Part shown: in pieces, positions 9,490 through 21,264 of the stretch
How positions within the stretch are numbered: position 1 is the stretch's first letter
Layout of the letters: the number at the start of each line of letters is the position of its first letter
NCBI GenBank assembly: GCA_016192455.1
Contig: JACPUC010000021.1
Location: forward strand, 62,001-99,629
Length of the DNA: 37,629 bases
Direction of reading: 5' to 3'
Source: Candidatus Tectimicrobiota bacterium
GTDB taxonomy: Bacteria > JACPUC01
The notes under the pieces: model-generated
Database searches by the model: none
The model's input: only the letters and a program-made list of their open reading frames with translations
Told to the model about the DNA's origin: nothing
Program-made: the position numbers and the translations under genes

Positions 9490-10320
9490 CTACGCGAGGC
9501 TCGCCAGGCTGGCGCTCTCGAGGTCCGGCTCCCGGCCGTTGAGGAGGGGGATGAGCAGACGCCGGATGTTGGTGGCGCGGCCCGTGCTCAACTCCACCGT
9601 CACGACCACGCCCGCCAGGACCGCGTCTTTCTTCGCCGCTTCGAAGCGCTTCGGCATCTGCGAGAGGAACTTCTCGATGACGATCTCTTTCTGAATGCCG
9701 ATGACCGAGTCGTAGGGTCCCGTCATGCCGACATCCGTGATGTAGGCGGTGCCCCGGGGGAGGATGCGCTCATCCGCGGTCTGCACGTGGGTGTGGCTCC
9801 CCACCACGGCGCTGACGCGGCCATCCAGGTACCAGCCCATGGCGATCTTCTCGGAGGTCGCCTCGGCGTGCATGTCGACGAAGATGACCTCGCATTGCGG
9901 CCGCAAGCGCTCGATCTCTTCATCCGCTTTGCGGAACGGACAATCGACGGTCGACATGAACACCCGCCCCATCAGGTTCAGCACGCCGATACGCGTTCCA
10001 TCAGGGGCCACCACGACGTGGCTGCCCCTCCCAGGCACGTCCTCGGGATAGTTCGCCGGGCGCAGGAGGCGCGTCTCATGGCTGATGCACTCGAAGACCT
10101 CCTTCTTGTCCCAGACGTGGTTCCCGGAAGTGAGGACATTGATGCCGCTCTTCAGCAGCTCGTCGATGATCGCCGGCGTTACGCCTGCGCCGCCCGCGGC
10201 GTTCTCACAGTTGGCAATGCAGACATCCGCGCCGTAGTGCTGCACAATCTCGCCGAGGAGACGCTGCACCACCATGCGCCCGGGCTTGCCAAAAATGTCG
10301 CCGATGTAGACGAGTTTCAC
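9490..10320 (-). CDS. ymdB: YmdB-family metallophosphoesterase (TIGR00282)
   Basis: GDIFGKPGR, NCENAAGG, SGNHVWD, DMHAEATSEK, GSHTHVQTAD and TDVGMTGP; lies downstream of rny. Confidence 0.95.
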   Translation of the reverse strand: MKLVYIGDIFGKPGRMVVQRLLGEIVQHYGADVCIANCENAAGGAGVTPAIIDELLKSGINVLTSGNHVWDKKEVFECISHETRLLRPANYPEDVPGRGSHVVVAPDGTRIGVLNLMGRVFMSTVDCPFRKADEEIERLRPQCEVIFVDMHAEATSEKIAMGWYLDGRVSAVVGSHTHVQTADERILPRGTAYITDVGMTGPYDSVIGIQKEIVIEKFLSQMPKRFEAAKKDAVLAGVVVTVELSTGRATNIRRLLIPLLNGREPDLESASLASLA

Positions 10321-10656: not shown

Positions 10657-12219
10657 CTAGCGCGCATACTCCACCGAACGCATCTCGCGAATTACCGTCA
10701 CCTTGATCTCGCCCGGGTAGGCTACTTCCTCCTCAATCCGTTTGGCGATGTCCCGAGCCAGCAACTGCGCCTCCGCGTCGCTGATCTCGCTCGGTTCCAC
10801 GATGACGCGAATCTCGCGCCCGGCTTGGATCGCGTAGGCCTTCTGGACTCCGGCAAAGGAGTCGCAGATGTTCTCGAGCTGCTCGAGGCGCTTGATGTAG
10901 TTCTCCAGCATCTCGCGGCGGGCGCCGGGACGGGCCGCCGAGATGGCATCGGCCGCCTGCACGATGATGGCTTCCAGCGATTGCGCCTCGGCATCCTCGT
11001 GGTGGGCCTCAATGGCGTTGAGGACCTGCTTCGATTCGTTGCCGCGCTTCAGAATCTCGACGCTGATCTGCGTGTGGGTCCCATCGTGCTGGTGGGTGAC
11101 CGCCTTGCCGATGTCGTGCAGCAGCCCGGCGCGCTTCGCCACCTTCACATCACATCCCAGCTCCGCCGCGATCACCCCGGCGATGTAGGCCACCTCCTTG
11201 GAGTGCTGCAGCATGTTCTGGGAGTAGCTGGTGCGATACCTCAGGCGGCCCAGCAGGCGCAGGACCTCCTGGTGCAGGTTATCGACGCCGGCTTCGAAGG
11301 CCGCTTTCTCCCCCTCCTCGCGCAGGGAGGTCGACATCTCCTTGGTGACGCGCGCCACCATCTCTTCGATGCGCGCCGGATGGATGCGCCCGTCCGCGAT
11401 GAGCCGTTCGAGCGCCAAGCGGGCGATCTCCCGCTTCACTGGATCGAAGCCGCTCAAGATCACCGCTTCCGGGGTGTCATCGACGATGAGGTCGATGCCG
11501 GTGGCCATTTGCAGGGCGCGGATGTTCCGCCCCTCGCGGCCGATGATGCGGCCCTTCATCTCCTCGTTCGGCAGACCCACCACGGAGACGGTGGTCTCGG
11601 CGACATATTCGGAGGCGCAGCTTTGGATCGCATAGCCGAGAATTTCCCGCGCTTTGCGATCCGCGGTCTCGCGCGTCTGGCGCTCCAGCCGCCGCAGCTT
11701 CTCGGCGCACTCCAGGCGAGCCTCGCGCAGCATCTCGTCCATGAGGGACTGACGCGCCTCGCTGGCGGTCATGCCGGCGATGAGCTCCAGCTTCACCTTG
11801 GCCTCGTGAAGCTGCTGGTCCACCCGCGTGCGATCGCCGGCCAAGCTCTCCTCCAGCCCCTGAAGCTGCCGCTGCTGCTTGGCGAGGGTCTTCTCCTGGC
11901 CCTCGCAGAGGGTGACCCGCTGGTTCAGGGTCTGCTCGCGTTCGTCGAGGCGTTGCGACATGCGCTTCAGCTCGAGCTGCCGCTCGCGCGTCTCCTCCTC
12001 GAAGGCCAGGCGCGTCTGCAGGAGCTTCTCCTTGGCCTCCAGCTCAGCATCGTGCCGTCGTCTCTTCACCTCTTCGTCGGTCTGTTGCCGCAGCCGCTCC
12101 GCCTCTCGGTCCAGCTCGGCGCGTCGCTTGCGGATGAGGGAGCGCCCCACACCCAGGCCAATGACGAGGCCGATGCCAAGGGCTACCACCGCCAACAGGA
12201 TCATGAATGTGAGTTGCAT
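10657..12219 (-). CDS. rny: Ribonuclease Y
   Basis: N-terminal TM helix, coiled coil, KH domain ([14 protein letters not shown]), HD domain (LLHDIGKA), [14 protein letters not shown] 12219 follows GGGAGG. Confidence 0.97.
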
Positions 12220-12720
12220 AGGAGTGAACACCTCCCGGCGTCATCCACCGGCATTTACGCGGCGCAGGGTTCCAAGGCCATGGCGCGCCGGCGCGGCCTG
12301 AAGAGAAAGGGCGCCATGGGGGATGCTGCCGCCGCGCCGCCGCCGGCGCTCTGCCTCCCAAGAATGCTCCGAGAACGACGAAGATGTGGAGGGAGTGAGC
12401 GTCGTCCAGCGGTTCTCACCTGGGCAAACATCTAGCCCCCTTCGTGCATCGTGTGTCAGAAGACGAGCGAGCAAGGAGACGAAAGCATCAACCGGAGAGA
12501 GCCTGGCGGGAATGGCGAGGCACACCTGACGGTCCCGAGTACGTGGGCCGTGCGAGGCGGCAAGGAGAGGCGCTCACTGAATCAGAGGCGGTCAGGGCAA
12601 CGCGGGCCACGGGGGTGTGGGATGGTCAGGTGGCGCCGGCGCAGAGTTCCAGGATCGCTGCCAGAGATGGACTTCCACGCACCAGCATGCCCCACGCTCA
12701 GCACGAATCCCTGACCTGTA

Positions 12721-12895
12721 AAGGAACGACGAGTACCCTACATCCTCAACCACGCATCACCTTTTTTGATGTTGAACTCATGTTGAGGCAACCACCCACA
12801 CGTGAGCTTCGGTCCCCACCACGTGGGGGTCCCGCCGAGCCCGCGCCCCCTCTGAACAGGAGCCAATTTCTCCCTACTCTCACTCGTCCCTCGTT
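12721..12895 (-). ncRNA. 6S RNA-like rod (candidate ssrS), embedded in a larger structured region
   Basis: Lies downstream of zapA, the usual ssrS position. About 175-nt rod closed by GACGAGT 12728-12734 / ACTCGTC 12882-12888, with a central bubble. Minus-strand stems TTGGCTC/GAGTTCAA, TGTT/AACA and GAGG/CCTC lead to an apical CCCCAC/GTGGGG hairpin. G-U pairs favour the minus strand. Boundaries approximate. Confidence 0.5.
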
Positions 12896-13078
12896 CAATC
12901 GGGAAGATGTTGCCGCCCGCACCTGTCACGGGGCGCACCCGCCTTGCAAGATCGGCGATAGTCCTTGGGTGCAACGCCCCGCGAGGCCAAACGACGCCTC
13001 CGCTCTCCTGCCCGGTTTTCTCCTTTCTGCCTTGTACCATGCGTGGGACCGAGGAATCCTCCCCGTCGCGTGTCCACG

Positions 13079-13408
13079 TCATGGCTCAAGAGTATTGTAC
13101 TCTTCAGCAAGCTCCTTGTCCAATAGCGACAACATCGAGGAGGCCTTCTTGGCGATCAGGGCGGTGTTCGTCTCATGCTGCTGGCGCAGCTCGAAGAGCT
13201 CGCTGGCAATGTAGAGCGCCGCCAGGATGCCGATTTTCGCCGGCGAACTATCCGGCGGGGCCTTGGCTGCCACGTCGCGCATCTTTTGATCAACGTACGC
13301 CGCAATTTGACGGGTCAGCTCCTCGCTGGCTTCCCCGCGGATGGTGTAGCTGCGCCCAAAGATCTCAACCTGTGTCTGAACGCTCACCGTTGGCTGAGCC
13401 GCCTCCAT
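13079..13408 (-). CDS. zapA: Cell division protein ZapA
   Basis: VEIFGRSYTIRG...IAAYVDQKMRDV...ILAALYIASELFEL; context downstream of pheT. Confidence 0.93.
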   Translation of the reverse strand: MEAAQPTVSVQTQVEIFGRSYTIRGEASEELTRQIAAYVDQKMRDVAAKAPPDSSPAKIGILAALYIASELFELRQQHETNTALIAKKASSMLSLLDKELAEEYNTLEP

Positions 13409-13471
13409 GGGAGCCCTGCCGGCGTCTGGCCGCGGCCTCCCGCCTGCACGCGCCCCGCTGCCTGCGCCGCG

Positions 13472-13747
13472 TTACAGATCGAGCTCCTCCAGCTTCTCCA
13501 GGAGGGACTCGATCCTGCTGCTGACGATATCACGCTCTTCAAGGAGCCTCTTGTTCTCGTGCAGGAGCGTGTCGTACTCGCCGCGCTCGTTGTGCAGCTC
13601 GAGCGCCAGGGCATCCTGTTCTTGAACGCGGCGCTCCAGCTCTTCCACGCGCCGTTGCAGTTGAGCATTCTGGGTGCGGTAGTCCGTGAGGCGTTCCAGC
13701 AGTTCGACAAGGCGACGTTCCACCGCCTCGAGCTTCTCGACCGACAT
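13472..13747 (-). CDS. zapB: ZapB-like coiled-coil cell division protein
   Basis: All-helical heptad protein ending ERDIVSSRIESLLEKLEELDL; RBS AAGGAG before ATG 13747; directly upstream of zapA. Confidence 0.75.
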   Translation of the reverse strand: MSVEKLEAVERRLVELLERLTDYRTQNAQLQRRVEELERRVQEQDALALELHNERGEYDTLLHENKRLLEERDIVSSRIESLLEKLEELDL

Positions 13748-14131: not shown

Positions 14132-16543
14132 CTAGCGGTCGCGCAGGATTGCCTGGTGCTCGGCAGCCAGAGCCCGCACGATGGCCGCGCACTGTTCGTT
14201 GATCATCTCGTCCGTGAGCGTCCGATCCTCGGCCTGGAAGGTGAGGGAGAAGGCCAGACTCTTCTTGCCGGCTGGAATGGTCTCGCCCTTGAAGCAGTCG
14301 AACAAGGTGACCTCCCGCACCAGGAGGGGGGCGGCGCGACGAATCGAGGCTTCCACCTCGGCCGCCGGCGCCTGCTCGTCCACGATCAGCGCCAGGTCGC
14401 GCGGGCTGGCGGGATAGCGCGGCAGCTCCGCGAAACGCGGCGCCAGCGAGGCTGCCGCAAAGAATGGCCGCAGGTGCATCTCGAAGACGTACGCCGCGCC
14501 GGGGATGCGGAAGGCGGCCAGCGTGTCGGGATGGATCTCCCCGAGAGAGCCGATGACCTCCTCGCGGCAGCGGATGGCGAGGGCGCGACCGGGGTGCAGG
14601 AAGGGCGCCTCCGTCGGCGCAAGGTCGAGGCAGGTCAGGCGGAACCCGCGCCCTACATGCTCGAGGATGCCTTTGATGTCGAAGAAGTCCGCCCCGATGT
14701 CCTCGCTGGCCCACGAGAGTGGATGGCGAGGTCCGCTCAGGAGCACCGCCAGGTGGCGCAGCTCGACCGGCAGCGCCCCGGCCTGCTCTGCCGGCAGGAA
14801 GACGGCGCCGTACTCGAAGAGCCTCACCTCGCTCTGCTGGCGGGTGAGGTTGTAGCGCAGGCAGTTCAGCAGACCCGGCAGCAGCATGGTCCTCATGATG
14901 GAGAACTCGGCGCTGAGGGGGTTGCTGAGCGGCATCGGCCGGGCCTGGGGGTCGCTGCGCGTGAGCCGCAGATGGTCGAGCCACTCGGCGTTGATGAAGG
15001 AGTAGGTGATTGCCTCGCACAGTCCGCAGGCGAGGAGCAGCTCGCGCAGGCGGCGCTCCTGGGGGCGCGTGGAGGGGCCGCTCTCAGCGGTGAGGGGGCT
15101 CAACGGCAGCGTCGTCGGGATGTTCTCATAGCCGTGCAGACGCGCCACTTCTTCGATGAGGTCGATCTCGCGGCTGAGGTCCGGCCGGAAGAGCGGCAGG
15201 CTCACCTCGAACTCATCGGGGGCCGTGTCGCGCACGGGCAACTGCAGCCGCTCCAAGGCGCCGCGCGCCTCCGGTCCCGCAAGCGCCGTGCCGAGGACGT
15301 GATTGAGGCGGGCGAGGCGCAGCCGCACCTTGGGTTTCGTCAGCGGCGTGGGGTAGGCGTCGACCATTCCCTGGGCGACGCGACCGGCCGCAATCCGCGC
15401 CATGAGGTCGGCGGCCCGGTCGCATGCGATCGGCGTGCCGTCGGGGTCCACGCCGCGCTCGAAACGATGCGAGGCTTCGGTGTGCATGCCGAGACGTTTC
15501 GCGGTGCGACGGATGCTGGTCGGCTCGAAGTAGGCGCTCTCGAGGAGGACGTTCCGCGTGCCCGCGTGCACTTCCGAGTTCAAGCCGCCCATCACCCCGG
15601 CCAGGGCGATACTGCGTCGGCCGTCGGCGATCATCAGCATGTCCGGCTGCAGCTCCCGCTCCACGCCGTCGAGGGTGATGAAGCGCTCTCCCGCGGCGGC
15701 GCACCGCACGACGATGCGCTGCTCCTCGAGGAGATCGAAGTCGAAGGCGTGCAGGGGCTGGCCGCGCTCGAGGAGGACGTAGTTCGTGGCATCGACGATC
15801 GCGTTGATGGGCCGCAGCCCAGCCTTCAGGAGGCGCACCTGCAGCCACAGGGGGGAGGGGCCGATGACGACGCCCTCGATGAGCCGGCCGCAGTACCGCG
15901 GGCAGAGGTCGGGCCGGTCGAGGACGATCGCCACCCTGCCGGCGGTCGGCGGCCCTTCCTCGGCCACGTTCACCTGCGGCGGGGCGAAGGGCAGCTTGCA
16001 GAGCGCCGCGACCTCGCGCGCCACCCCGAGCATGCTGAAGCAATCGGCGCGGTTCGGCGTCAGGTCCAGCTCGAGGATGACATCGTCGTACTGCAGGAGC
16101 TCCGCGAGGGGCGCGCCGAGGGGGCTGCCTTCGGGGAGGACCAGGACGCCCTCGGCATCGTGCCCGAGCTCCAGCTCCGCGCTGGAGCAGAGCATCCCCT
16201 CCGAGAGGACGCCGCGGATCTCAGCGGCCTCGACGCGCTGCCCGTTCGGGAGCTGGGCGCCGACCTTTCCAAGGGCCACAGCCTGGCCGGGATGGAGGTT
16301 GGCGGCGGCGCAGACCACGCGCGACCTTCCCTGCCCCGTGTCCACGGTGCAGAGCCGCAGGCGCTCCGCCTTGGGATGGGGCGTGACGGCGACGAGCCGG
16401 GCGACGACGACACCCCGCAGGCGCCCGCGCCAGTCGTCGAGGTGACCAACCTCGACGCCTCCCATGGTGAGGGTCTCGGCCAGCTCCTCCGGCGGGCGAT
16501 CAAGCTTCACGAACTCTTGCAGCCAGGCAAAGCTGACGCGCAC
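14132..16543 (-). CDS. pheT: Phenylalanine--tRNA ligase beta subunit
   Basis: MRVSFAWLQEF, HPKAERLRLC, SEGMLCS, LTPNRADC, RFERGVD, DLIEEVARLHGY and C-terminal KSLAFSLTFQ. GTG start. Confidence 0.98.
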   Translation of the reverse strand: MRVSFAWLQEFVKLDRPPEELAETLTMGGVEVGHLDDWRGRLRGVVVARLVAVTPHPKAERLRLCTVDTGQGRSRVVCAAANLHPGQAVALGKVGAQLPNGQRVEAAEIRGVLSEGMLCSSAELELGHDAEGVLVLPEGSPLGAPLAELLQYDDVILELDLTPNRADCFSMLGVAREVAALCKLPFAPPQVNVAEEGPPTAGRVAIVLDRPDLCPRYCGRLIEGVVIGPSPLWLQVRLLKAGLRPINAIVDATNYVLLERGQPLHAFDFDLLEEQRIVVRCAAAGERFITLDGVERELQPDMLMIADGRRSIALAGVMGGLNSEVHAGTRNVLLESAYFEPTSIRRTAKRLGMHTEASHRFERGVDPDGTPIACDRAADLMARIAAGRVAQGMVDAYPTPLTKPKVRLRLARLNHVLGTALAGPEARGALERLQLPVRDTAPDEFEVSLPLFRPDLSREIDLIEEVARLHGYENIPTTLPLSPLTAESGPSTRPQERRLRELLLACGLCEAITYSFINAEWLDHLRLTRSDPQARPMPLSNPLSAEFSIMRTMLLPGLLNCLRYNLTRQQSEVRLFEYGAVFLPAEQAGALPVELRHLAVLLSGPRHPLSWASEDIGADFFDIKGILEHVGRGFRLTCLDLAPTEAPFLHPGRALAIRCREEVIGSLGEIHPDTLAAFRIPGAAYVFEMHLRPFFAAASLAPRFAELPRYPASPRDLALIVDEQAPAAEVEASIRRAAPLLVREVTLFDCFKGETIPAGKKSLAFSLTFQAEDRTLTDEMINEQCAAIVRALAAEHQAILRDR

Positions 16544-21189: not shown

Positions 21190-21264
21190 TGGTAGGCACG
21201 GGCGGTTTCGAACCGCCGACCTCTTGCGCGTCAAGCAAGCGCTCTCCCCCTGAGCTACGTGCCT
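21190..21264 (-). tRNA. tRNA-Val (GAC)
   Basis: AGGCACG acceptor stem, TAGCTCAG D-arm, anticodon arm CTTGC-TTGACGC-GCAAG, GGTTCGAAACC T-arm, encoded 3' ACCA; 75 nt. Confidence 0.97.

Follow-up and report, generated by a model that had tools for sequence, protein, structure and literature searches.

What lies between zapA and rny in a bacterium of the Candidatus Tectimicrobiota (lineage JACPUC01)? The window analyzed here, a stretch of 37,629 nt (contig JACPUC010000021.1 of assembly GCA_016192455.1, positions 62,001–99,629), carries both genes on its minus strand, with a gap between them at 12232–13078 that measures 847–859 nt depending on the start assigned to rny, the gene for RNase Y. A preliminary description, made from the letters of the window, had placed a large structured RNA in this gap, at the position where 6S RNA commonly lies. 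We find that the gap is non-coding and that its long-range complementarity is real and beyond chance; strand and function are not settled by complementarity. Our tentative proposal, to which we assign a probability of about 0.4, is that the gap gives the rny–ymdB transcript a large structured leader or a module for its processing; we class it for now as a candidate for a new large structured RNA, or leader, in the slot of 6S.

Long-range pairing and the predicted fold

We quantified long-range pairing by dE, the full minimum free energy (MFE) minus the MFE obtained when pairs may span ≤150 nt. For the core of the gap (12465–13030, minus strand), dE is −50.3, compared with −15.5 ± 5.3 in shuffled sequences (z −6.6; 0 of 150 reach it). 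None of 48 genomic controls comes as low (control minimum −32.4), and among 185 tiles that cover the window no other is as extreme as the core (mean dE −15.1, s.d. 5.6, next best −30.4). The core boundaries were picked after the helices had been seen, which weighs against these values, and the test was therefore rerun on the whole gap with boundaries set by the genes. There, dE is −51.4 on the minus strand (shuffles −27.7 ± 5.0, z −4.8, 0/60) and −52.3 on the plus strand (shuffles −26.0 ± 5.6, z −4.7, 0/60). The two strands of the rod in the fold described below form a duplex of −105.5 kcal/mol, against −73.3 ± 5.7 kcal/mol in shuffles (z −5.65, 0/200). Local structure does not stand out: local-only folding of the core is weaker than in shuffles (z +2.5), and no 160-nt window on the minus strand is exceptional (z −1.5 to +1.05). 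A repeat search found 28 inverted pairs in the gap, single repeats of 6–7 nt being at chance level.

The gap shows none of the marks of a coding region. GC content by codon position is flat (0.62/0.68/0.62), where the genuine neighbouring genes give 0.70/0.39/0.87 (rny) and 0.74/0.47/0.90 (pheT); none of ten open reading frames (ORFs) in the gap has a Pfam match at E ≤ 1, none of the ten is present in an exact look-up of a collection of 15 billion proteins, and 1–2-nt indels across the gap in two related contigs would shift the frame of every one of them. Based on these four observations, the gap is non-coding, as the preliminary description had judged when it saw no convincing ORF.

From the predicted structure, we consider it possible, though not yet probable, that the minus strand of the gap encodes a large structured RNA domain of ~566 nt, with its 5′ end at 13030 and its 3′ end at 12465. 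The favoured minus-strand fold, as judged by MFE and ensemble, consists of outer helices, a side hairpin, a long irregular rod and an apical crown of 224 nt, with ~96 long-range base pairs. The 5′ strand of the outer closing helices (12995–13030, with TCTCCTT, CCGGTT and GCTCTC) pairs with a 3′ strand at 12467–12508 that holds AAGGAGA, AACCGG and GAGAGC; the main helices reach ensemble probabilities of 0.36–0.43 and the innermost, of 4 bp, 0.17, and the outer-helix duplex taken alone is not significant (z −1.7, 9/200 shuffles). The side hairpin, with its CGGGGCG/CGCCCCG arm, spans 12926–12984 (probability 0.81–0.85). The rod is formed by a 5′ strand at 12831–12917 and a 3′ strand at 12514–12606, paired with probabilities of 0.6–1.0; its symmetric loops are predicted to be ≤3 nt, and the sole large loop is a 77/5-nt junction that carries a hairpin. 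The crown (12607–12830, probabilities 0.5–0.99) comprises five hairpins, at 12791–12830, 12744–12788, 12717–12742, 12624–12716 and 12607–12620. Closer to rny lie two minus-strand hairpins, one at 12371–12417 with a 19-nt loop and a GC-rich one of 9 bp at 12278–12319, about 50–90 nt upstream of the rny start.

How far does this fold agree with the nested helices of the preliminary description? Every repeat listed there lies at the coordinates given for it and forms standard pairs throughout, and the outer helices (0.36–0.39) and the side arm (0.81) hold up in the ensemble. The inner nest (12550–12563/12910–12922, 12590–12597/12709–12716 and 12728–12734/12882–12888) is disfavoured, with ensemble probabilities of ≤0.06; forcing the described nest costs 30 kcal/mol (−228.9 versus an MFE of −258.6 kcal/mol), and the segment described as a 175-nt rod folds as a multi-branch structure with z −1.1. 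The observation is thus partly confirmed: it is real in aggregate, and the detailed nest is not the favoured fold.

Motifs of the type GCAAGGAGA and their complements occur twice on each side of the fold and create alternative long-range registers. The copies lie at 12464–12479 and 12553–12568 and the complements at 12867–12878 and 13017–13028, and the registers are mutually exclusive; on minus-strand RNA, the motifs are Shine-Dalgarno-like purine runs paired with UCUCCUU runs. A conformational switch between these registers is a possibility raised by the modelled pairing.

Strand, transcription and variation in relatives

Since the long-range pairing is strand-symmetric, the minus strand is inferred from gene orientation. 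The preliminary description had held that G-U pairs favour the minus strand. Total energy agrees (MFE −258.6 versus −238.5 kcal/mol on the plus strand), but this advantage stems from base composition, and the long-range pairing itself is equal on both strands; G-U pairs account for 6 of 96 long-range pairs in the minus-strand fold and for 7 of 72 in the plus-strand fold. The mismatch spectrum of the rod is one-sided. On the minus strand, the non-Watson–Crick oppositions are six G-U pairs and six purine–purine 1×1 mismatches, and the predicted structure contains no A-C or pyrimidine–pyrimidine mismatches in the rod. A DNA palindrome that decays neutrally would be expected to show the two kinds in equal measure, so the modelled spectrum hints at a minus-strand RNA. 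Gene orientation and a promoter-like site also point to this strand. The candidate sigma-70-like promoter (TGGACA, 17-nt spacer, TACAAT; 13094–13122, minus strand) lies in the last codons of zapA and would start transcription near 13087; it is the sole promoter-like site in 12000–13500, where shuffles average 0.2. No intrinsic terminator was found between zapA and rny (12000–13500).

The genome has no close relative among the genome contigs compared, the closest RNase Y match being only 54–56% identical; in metagenome contigs, the best ZapA match is 47–48% identical over most of the protein, with short partial matches reaching 54%. The gap has no DNA similarity to any distant locus compared. 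Two related contigs that span zapA, the gap and rny were obtained from public sequencing runs of two other studies, one from run X5 (77 substitutions and three gaps over 1492 nt) and one from run X7 (122 substitutions and nine gaps over 1508 nt); two further runs, X11 and X14, cover just short pieces of the stretch. In both contigs the gap is retained at full length in the same place, at about 5% (X5) and 8% (X7) divergence. Among the gap indels listed, all are of 1–2 nt. Those in the core fall in hairpin loops, apical hairpins or the side arm: 12610, 12673 and 12825/12827 in the crown, and 12942 and 12947, from X7, in or next to the apical loop of the side hairpin, where the insertion behind 12942 sits within a 3-bp apical stem. 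None of the listed indels falls in either strand of the rod.

Substitutions were assessed for 40 of the 159 differences, all of them from X5 and at or below 12681. Between the rny start and the core (12232–12464), 17 of 233 sites are substituted (7.3%), compared with 5 of 142 (3.5%) in the 3′ strands of the rod and outer helices (12465–12606) and 4 of 75 at 12607–12681; the 3′ strand of the rod itself (12514–12606) has two changed sites, 12580 and 12586. Across 12232–12681, 10 of 294 sites paired in the MFE fold are substituted, compared with 16 of 156 that are unpaired (Fisher p 0.005); for A/T sites taken alone, the counts are 2/75 paired and 12/76 unpaired. Three of the ten changes at paired sites keep a G-U pair. 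One of these, at 12495 in the AACCGG helix (C to U on the minus strand), keeps G-U on the minus strand only. Position 12586, paired with 12851 at probability 1.0, is changed in both relatives.

In the region nearest rny, the X5 changes at 12340, 12357 and 12367 break MFE pairs, which counts against the proposed RNA domain and indicates that the MFE is wrong in this part. The variants agree better with the two simple proximal hairpins than with the MFE fold: all seven X5 changes within them fall in loops, three (12384, 12385 and 12388) in the 19-nt loop of 12371–12417 and four (12293, 12295, 12302 and 12308) in the loop of 12278–12319. An anti-Shine-Dalgarno role for the loop at 12381–12399 was considered and dropped, because X5 changes this loop at 12388.

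The 6S slot, a parallel rod RNA and the readings of the gap

To what extent is the gap a 6S slot? With ZapA and RNase Y of the window as probes, the arrangement zapA–gap–rny, mostly followed by ymdB, was found in 17 of 97 distant loci, an undercount given that the probe is weak. Rfam detects 6S within the zapA–rny gap in 4 of the 17 syntenic loci, and a covariance model built from these four RNAs (R1) finds 6S just upstream of rny in five more loci (47 searched) and a weak match of 116 nt in locus L021. The position assigned to the gap in the preliminary description is thereby supported: the gap lies directly downstream of zapA on the same strand, and parts of PMC7641849 describe ssrS, the 6S gene, as directly following zapA in beta- and gamma-proteobacteria. 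The nine canonical 6S RNAs upstream of rny (L008:3624-3808, L009:3621-3807, L014:1195-1380, L084:4311-4504, L026:3554-3733, L007:3647-3821, L028:2976-3154, L015:3573-3753 and L023:3683-3862) belong to Methylomirabilota, Desulfobaccales-type and other metagenome-assembled genomes (MAGs), with 6S after zapA wherever zapA was detected; they establish the order zapA–6S–rny–ymdB across several phyla. Two other zapA–rny gaps, L092:4298-4535 and L079:3530-4000, have neither an Rfam 6S match at gathering score nor an R1 match and fold with z −4.1 and −4.0 (30 shuffles); judging from their predicted folding, they may hold divergent 6S or other structured RNAs.

The gap of the window does not join this series by any search. 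The 6S model RF00013 has no match in the window at gathering score and none at E ≤ 10 in 12000–13400; R1 run without filters finds no 6S in the window (maximum 5.4 bits, best gap-associated match 4.0 bits), and the predicted fold lacks the single rod of 150–200 nt with a large central bubble that characterizes 6S. The idea of the preliminary description that this might be an expanded 6S is therefore not supported as family membership. Among the 4227 Rfam families, none matches the gap at gathering score, E ≤ 10 yields just two chance-level matches of 17 bits, and the sole gathering-score match in the window is a tRNA at 21193–21264. Nor was a canonical 6S found anywhere in the genome, which is 88% complete, or near its ygfA homologue; a control 6S search succeeds in just 5 of 14 model genomes, so that this absence is weak evidence. 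Two candidate places yielded nothing: the best genome-wide 6S match (20.5 bits, C1:55205-55365) was rejected, being inside long ORFs and having a fold z of +0.4, and the region upstream of the ygfA homologue contained no candidate. Of the options in the preliminary description, the one that would fit the evidence best is an undescribed large RNA in its own right or a scaffold linked to rny.

Large rod-shaped RNAs do occur at the zapA–rny slot, as judged from an alignment of seven loci in Syntrophaceae/Thermodesulfobacteriota MAGs. Here, the gaps measure 500–860 nt and differ by hairpin-sized indels (alignment A2), and the consensus, which has 63 pairs, forms a rod of roughly 420 nt (L013:3354-3770, L021:3297-3778, L024:2084-2474, L027:3315-3783, L029:3471-3907, L030:3582-3954 and L036:3376-3796). 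In this alignment, 90.9% of cells are paired, versus 48–56% when partners are slid, and both sides have changed at 18 pairs, versus 4–10 in the slid controls; the covariation is reached in none of 500 shuffles. Two of these RNAs examined by dE have z −3.6 and −4.7. A short 6S-like hairpin precedes the rod in three of the seven loci, and in other loci the rod comes directly after zapA. The rod has no Rfam match at E ≤ 5, 6S included, and Rfam 6S at E ≤ 0.01 was found in none of five Syntrophaceae-like genomes. Its sequence profile recovers no loci beyond its seven source loci, and it shares no sequence similarity with the gap of the window. The Syntrophaceae-type rod may represent a new RNA family.

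With these results in hand, we propose the following role for the gap. Transcription would start at the promoter-like site within the last zapA codons, arrive as read-through from zapA, or both, and the RNA would be continuous with the rny–ymdB mRNA, since no terminator lies in between. The irregular rod would join the two ends of the domain and close the five-hairpin crown, and a further 230 nt with two hairpins would lead to the ribosome-binding site of rny. Its most likely role would be to act in cis, as a leader or processing module, on the level of RNase Y: the rod, being double-stranded, could be a site of cleavage or protection for RNase III, RNase E/G or RNase Y itself, which would uncouple rny from zapA and control the stability of rny mRNA, and the domain, once excised, may remain as a stable RNA from the slot that holds 6S elsewhere. 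The 5′ untranslated regions of rny in B. subtilis and of rne in E. coli, through which these genes are autoregulated, would be analogues. In favour of this proposal are a gap that is single-copy, non-coding and of full length in relatives, and its excess of long-range pairing. The covarying RNAs at this position in Syntrophaceae/Thermodesulfobacteriota MAGs, the sparing of rod strands and predicted pairs by the listed changes, the one-sided mismatches, the promoter-like site with no terminator after it, and the RNase III and RNase E/G homologues of the genome also speak for it. Several results weigh against it. Measured against shuffled controls, the gap stands out in dE (z −4.8 to −6.6), whereas total MFE gives z −1.0 to −2.3: the whole gap is ordinary at z −1.0 on both strands (−0.96 and −1.46 with 60 shuffles), and the core gives −1.87 (6/100 shuffles) and −2.31 (3/150). 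In a ranking of 8151 segment pairs by raw duplex energy on a fixed 50-nt grid, the gap is outside the top 15, and the four GC-richer top pairs of that grid that were tested have duplex z of −1.9 to −4.6. The plus strand shows long-range pairing of the same strength, and the candidate promoter is a match to consensus only. In the relatives, the gap, at about 5.5% divergence, is overall no better conserved than the genes on either side, the contrast between paired and unpaired sites is not significant within the core (5/149 versus 4/68), and at four changed paired sites the partner lies past 12681, where the listed X5 differences end (12586/12851, 12483/13025, 12664/12682 and 12268/13038).

The same results feed an explanation without any RNA function, in which the gap holds a decayed DNA-level inverted duplication or chance GC-rich repeats. 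Strand symmetry, a total MFE z of just about −1, direct repeats such as GCAAGGAGA that are present twice and give alternative registers, and a divergence similar to that of the coding flanks would all follow, and controls chosen as the best of the 8151 pairs reach duplex z of −4.0 to −4.6. We nevertheless regard it as doubtful, because the dE outlier persists with gene-set boundaries and against the 185 tiles, the modelled mismatches are one-sided (12 tolerated versus no A-C or pyrimidine–pyrimidine), the listed indels and substitutions of the relatives avoid rod strands and predicted pairs, no large indels appear at 8% divergence, and the same slot carries structured RNAs in other phyla. A non-autonomous element resembling a miniature inverted-repeat transposable element, with long terminal inverted repeats, would account for a spacer of about 225 nt that is flanked by imperfect inverted arms; it is very unlikely given the same placement in two relatives and the single copy in the genome, the latter not being conclusive since a MAG may have lost repeats. 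Least credible is a missed or decayed gene, such as a remnant of ygfA or the 114-aa ORF at 12738–13082, which starts with an ATG that overlaps the stop codon of zapA. The gap lacks codon periodicity and Pfam-matching ORFs, the 114-aa ORF is missing from the protein collection and in the relatives contains a deletion of 2 nt at 12825/12827 as well as single-nucleotide indels at 12942, 12947 and 13064, and the intact ygfA homologue elsewhere (C7:219184-219792) means that the gap is no ygfA remnant.

A stand-alone RNA that replaces 6S, as a giant 6S-like or Ms1-like decoy of RNA polymerase processed from a zapA–rny transcript much as E. coli 6S is from ssrS–ygfA, would explain why the domain occupies the slot of 6S in the loci found by Rfam (4/17) and R1 (five more), the slot described for beta- and gamma-proteobacteria in parts of PMC7641849, and why its 5′ and 3′ ends are predicted to pair into a rod. 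The lack of a canonical 6S in the 88%-complete genome, including beside the ygfA homologue, and of Rfam 6S in all five Syntrophaceae-like genomes with the 420-nt rod in the slot would fit as well. This explanation is rather unlikely: the gap has no match by Rfam at E ≤ 10 or by unfiltered R1, the domain is three times the size of 6S, its predicted rod has no large central bubble, and a 6S search that works in 5 of 14 control genomes lends little weight to an absence. In a broader form, rod RNAs of 400–570 nt in lineages in which no canonical 6S was detected (the groundwater lineage of the window and five of five Syntrophaceae-like genomes) would be giant 6S replacements or RNase-Y-linked RNAs that arose repeatedly, a generalization we think unlikely on present evidence.

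Genomic setting and comparison with known systems

The gap belongs to a minus-strand row of co-oriented genes (Pfam and ORF map): pheT (14132–16543), an ORF of 108 aa (13384–13710) without a Pfam match at E ≤ 1, zapA (13079–13408; Pfam ZapA, E 5.6e-19), the gap, rny (10657–12231; Pfam RNase_Y_N, KH and HD domains) and ymdB (9490–10320; Pfam YmdB). Parts of PMC7641849 indicate that ZapB often occupies the position of the 108-aa ORF in other bacteria. The Shine-Dalgarno sequence of rny, read from the sequence as GGGAGGUG, lies at 12229–12236, and a similar GGAGGTG precedes rny in aligned distant loci; the listed GTG start sits within this Shine-Dalgarno sequence, which makes the ATG at 12219 the likelier start of rny.

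The genome (4.46 Mb in 31 contigs, 66.8% GC) is the sole member of its phylum in the GTDB genome set compared and encodes RNase Y, RNase III and two RNase E/G homologues. Among the runs listed, its DNA is found in groundwater metagenomes of several studies, and also, in small and unconfirmed shares, in soil runs. The gap, with a GC content of 64%, is single-copy; BLAST and nhmmer return just short GC-rich low-complexity matches. Such a run (GCCGCCGCGCCGCCGCC-like) at 12322–12359 matches many places in the genome, forms no repeat family and draws in contigs of other organisms when sequencing runs are aligned, which inflates depth there.

Few bacterial structured RNAs exceed 400–500 nt, and every discovery of one has started a fresh line of research. 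If the proposal of a leader or processing module is true, expression of RNase Y, which in many bacteria is the main nuclease of mRNA decay, would be tied to a very large fold; alternatively, the conserved 6S slot would prove able to carry a quite different RNA where 6S was never found. The Syntrophaceae-type element adds a second system, supported by covariation over seven aligned loci from seven genomes.

Compared with 6S RNA (SsrS, RF00013), the gap domain shares the slot and strand after zapA, within the zapA–6S–rny–ymdB order of distant phyla; its ends are predicted to pair into an irregular rod, and it would probably be cut from a longer transcript. It differs in size (~566 nt versus ~185 nt), in closing a multi-hairpin crown where 6S is a single rod with a large central bubble, and in having no covariance-model match.

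Leaders of RNase genes offer a second comparison. The E. coli rne 5′ untranslated region (UTR) is an autoregulatory leader of such a gene. As described in parts of PMC10303841, B. subtilis RNase Y autoregulates through cleavages in its 5′ UTR and early ORF, the leader being 164 nt long, AU-rich and mostly unstructured at its 5′ end. The gap likewise stands directly upstream of the gene for a main decay-initiating endoribonuclease, with no terminator between them, but is about 850 nt long, 64% GC and dominated by long-range helices, and it matches no leader family of Rfam. Literature on a link between 6S and rny or on a large rny leader (supplements excluded) yielded just this B. subtilis UTR and the zapA–ssrS synteny.

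The large bacterial RNAs in Rfam include OLE, GOLLD, ROOL, HEARO and raiA; the gap domain resembles them in exceeding 500 nt and in its predicted multi-domain architecture, and differs in matching none of the Rfam families. In rRNA operons, long-range processing stems are cut by RNase III. The gap is similar in that a long imperfect duplex is predicted to form from the flanks of an internal structured RNA in a genome with an RNase III gene, although the RNA enclosed by its rod is not rRNA. A further counterpart is the Syntrophaceae-type rod. The two share no sequence, the seven Syntrophaceae-type loci are AT-richer, and covariation supports their rod and not that of the window; what they have in common is the slot, the orientation, a long-range closing rod around a variable apical part, and a dE that stands apart from controls.

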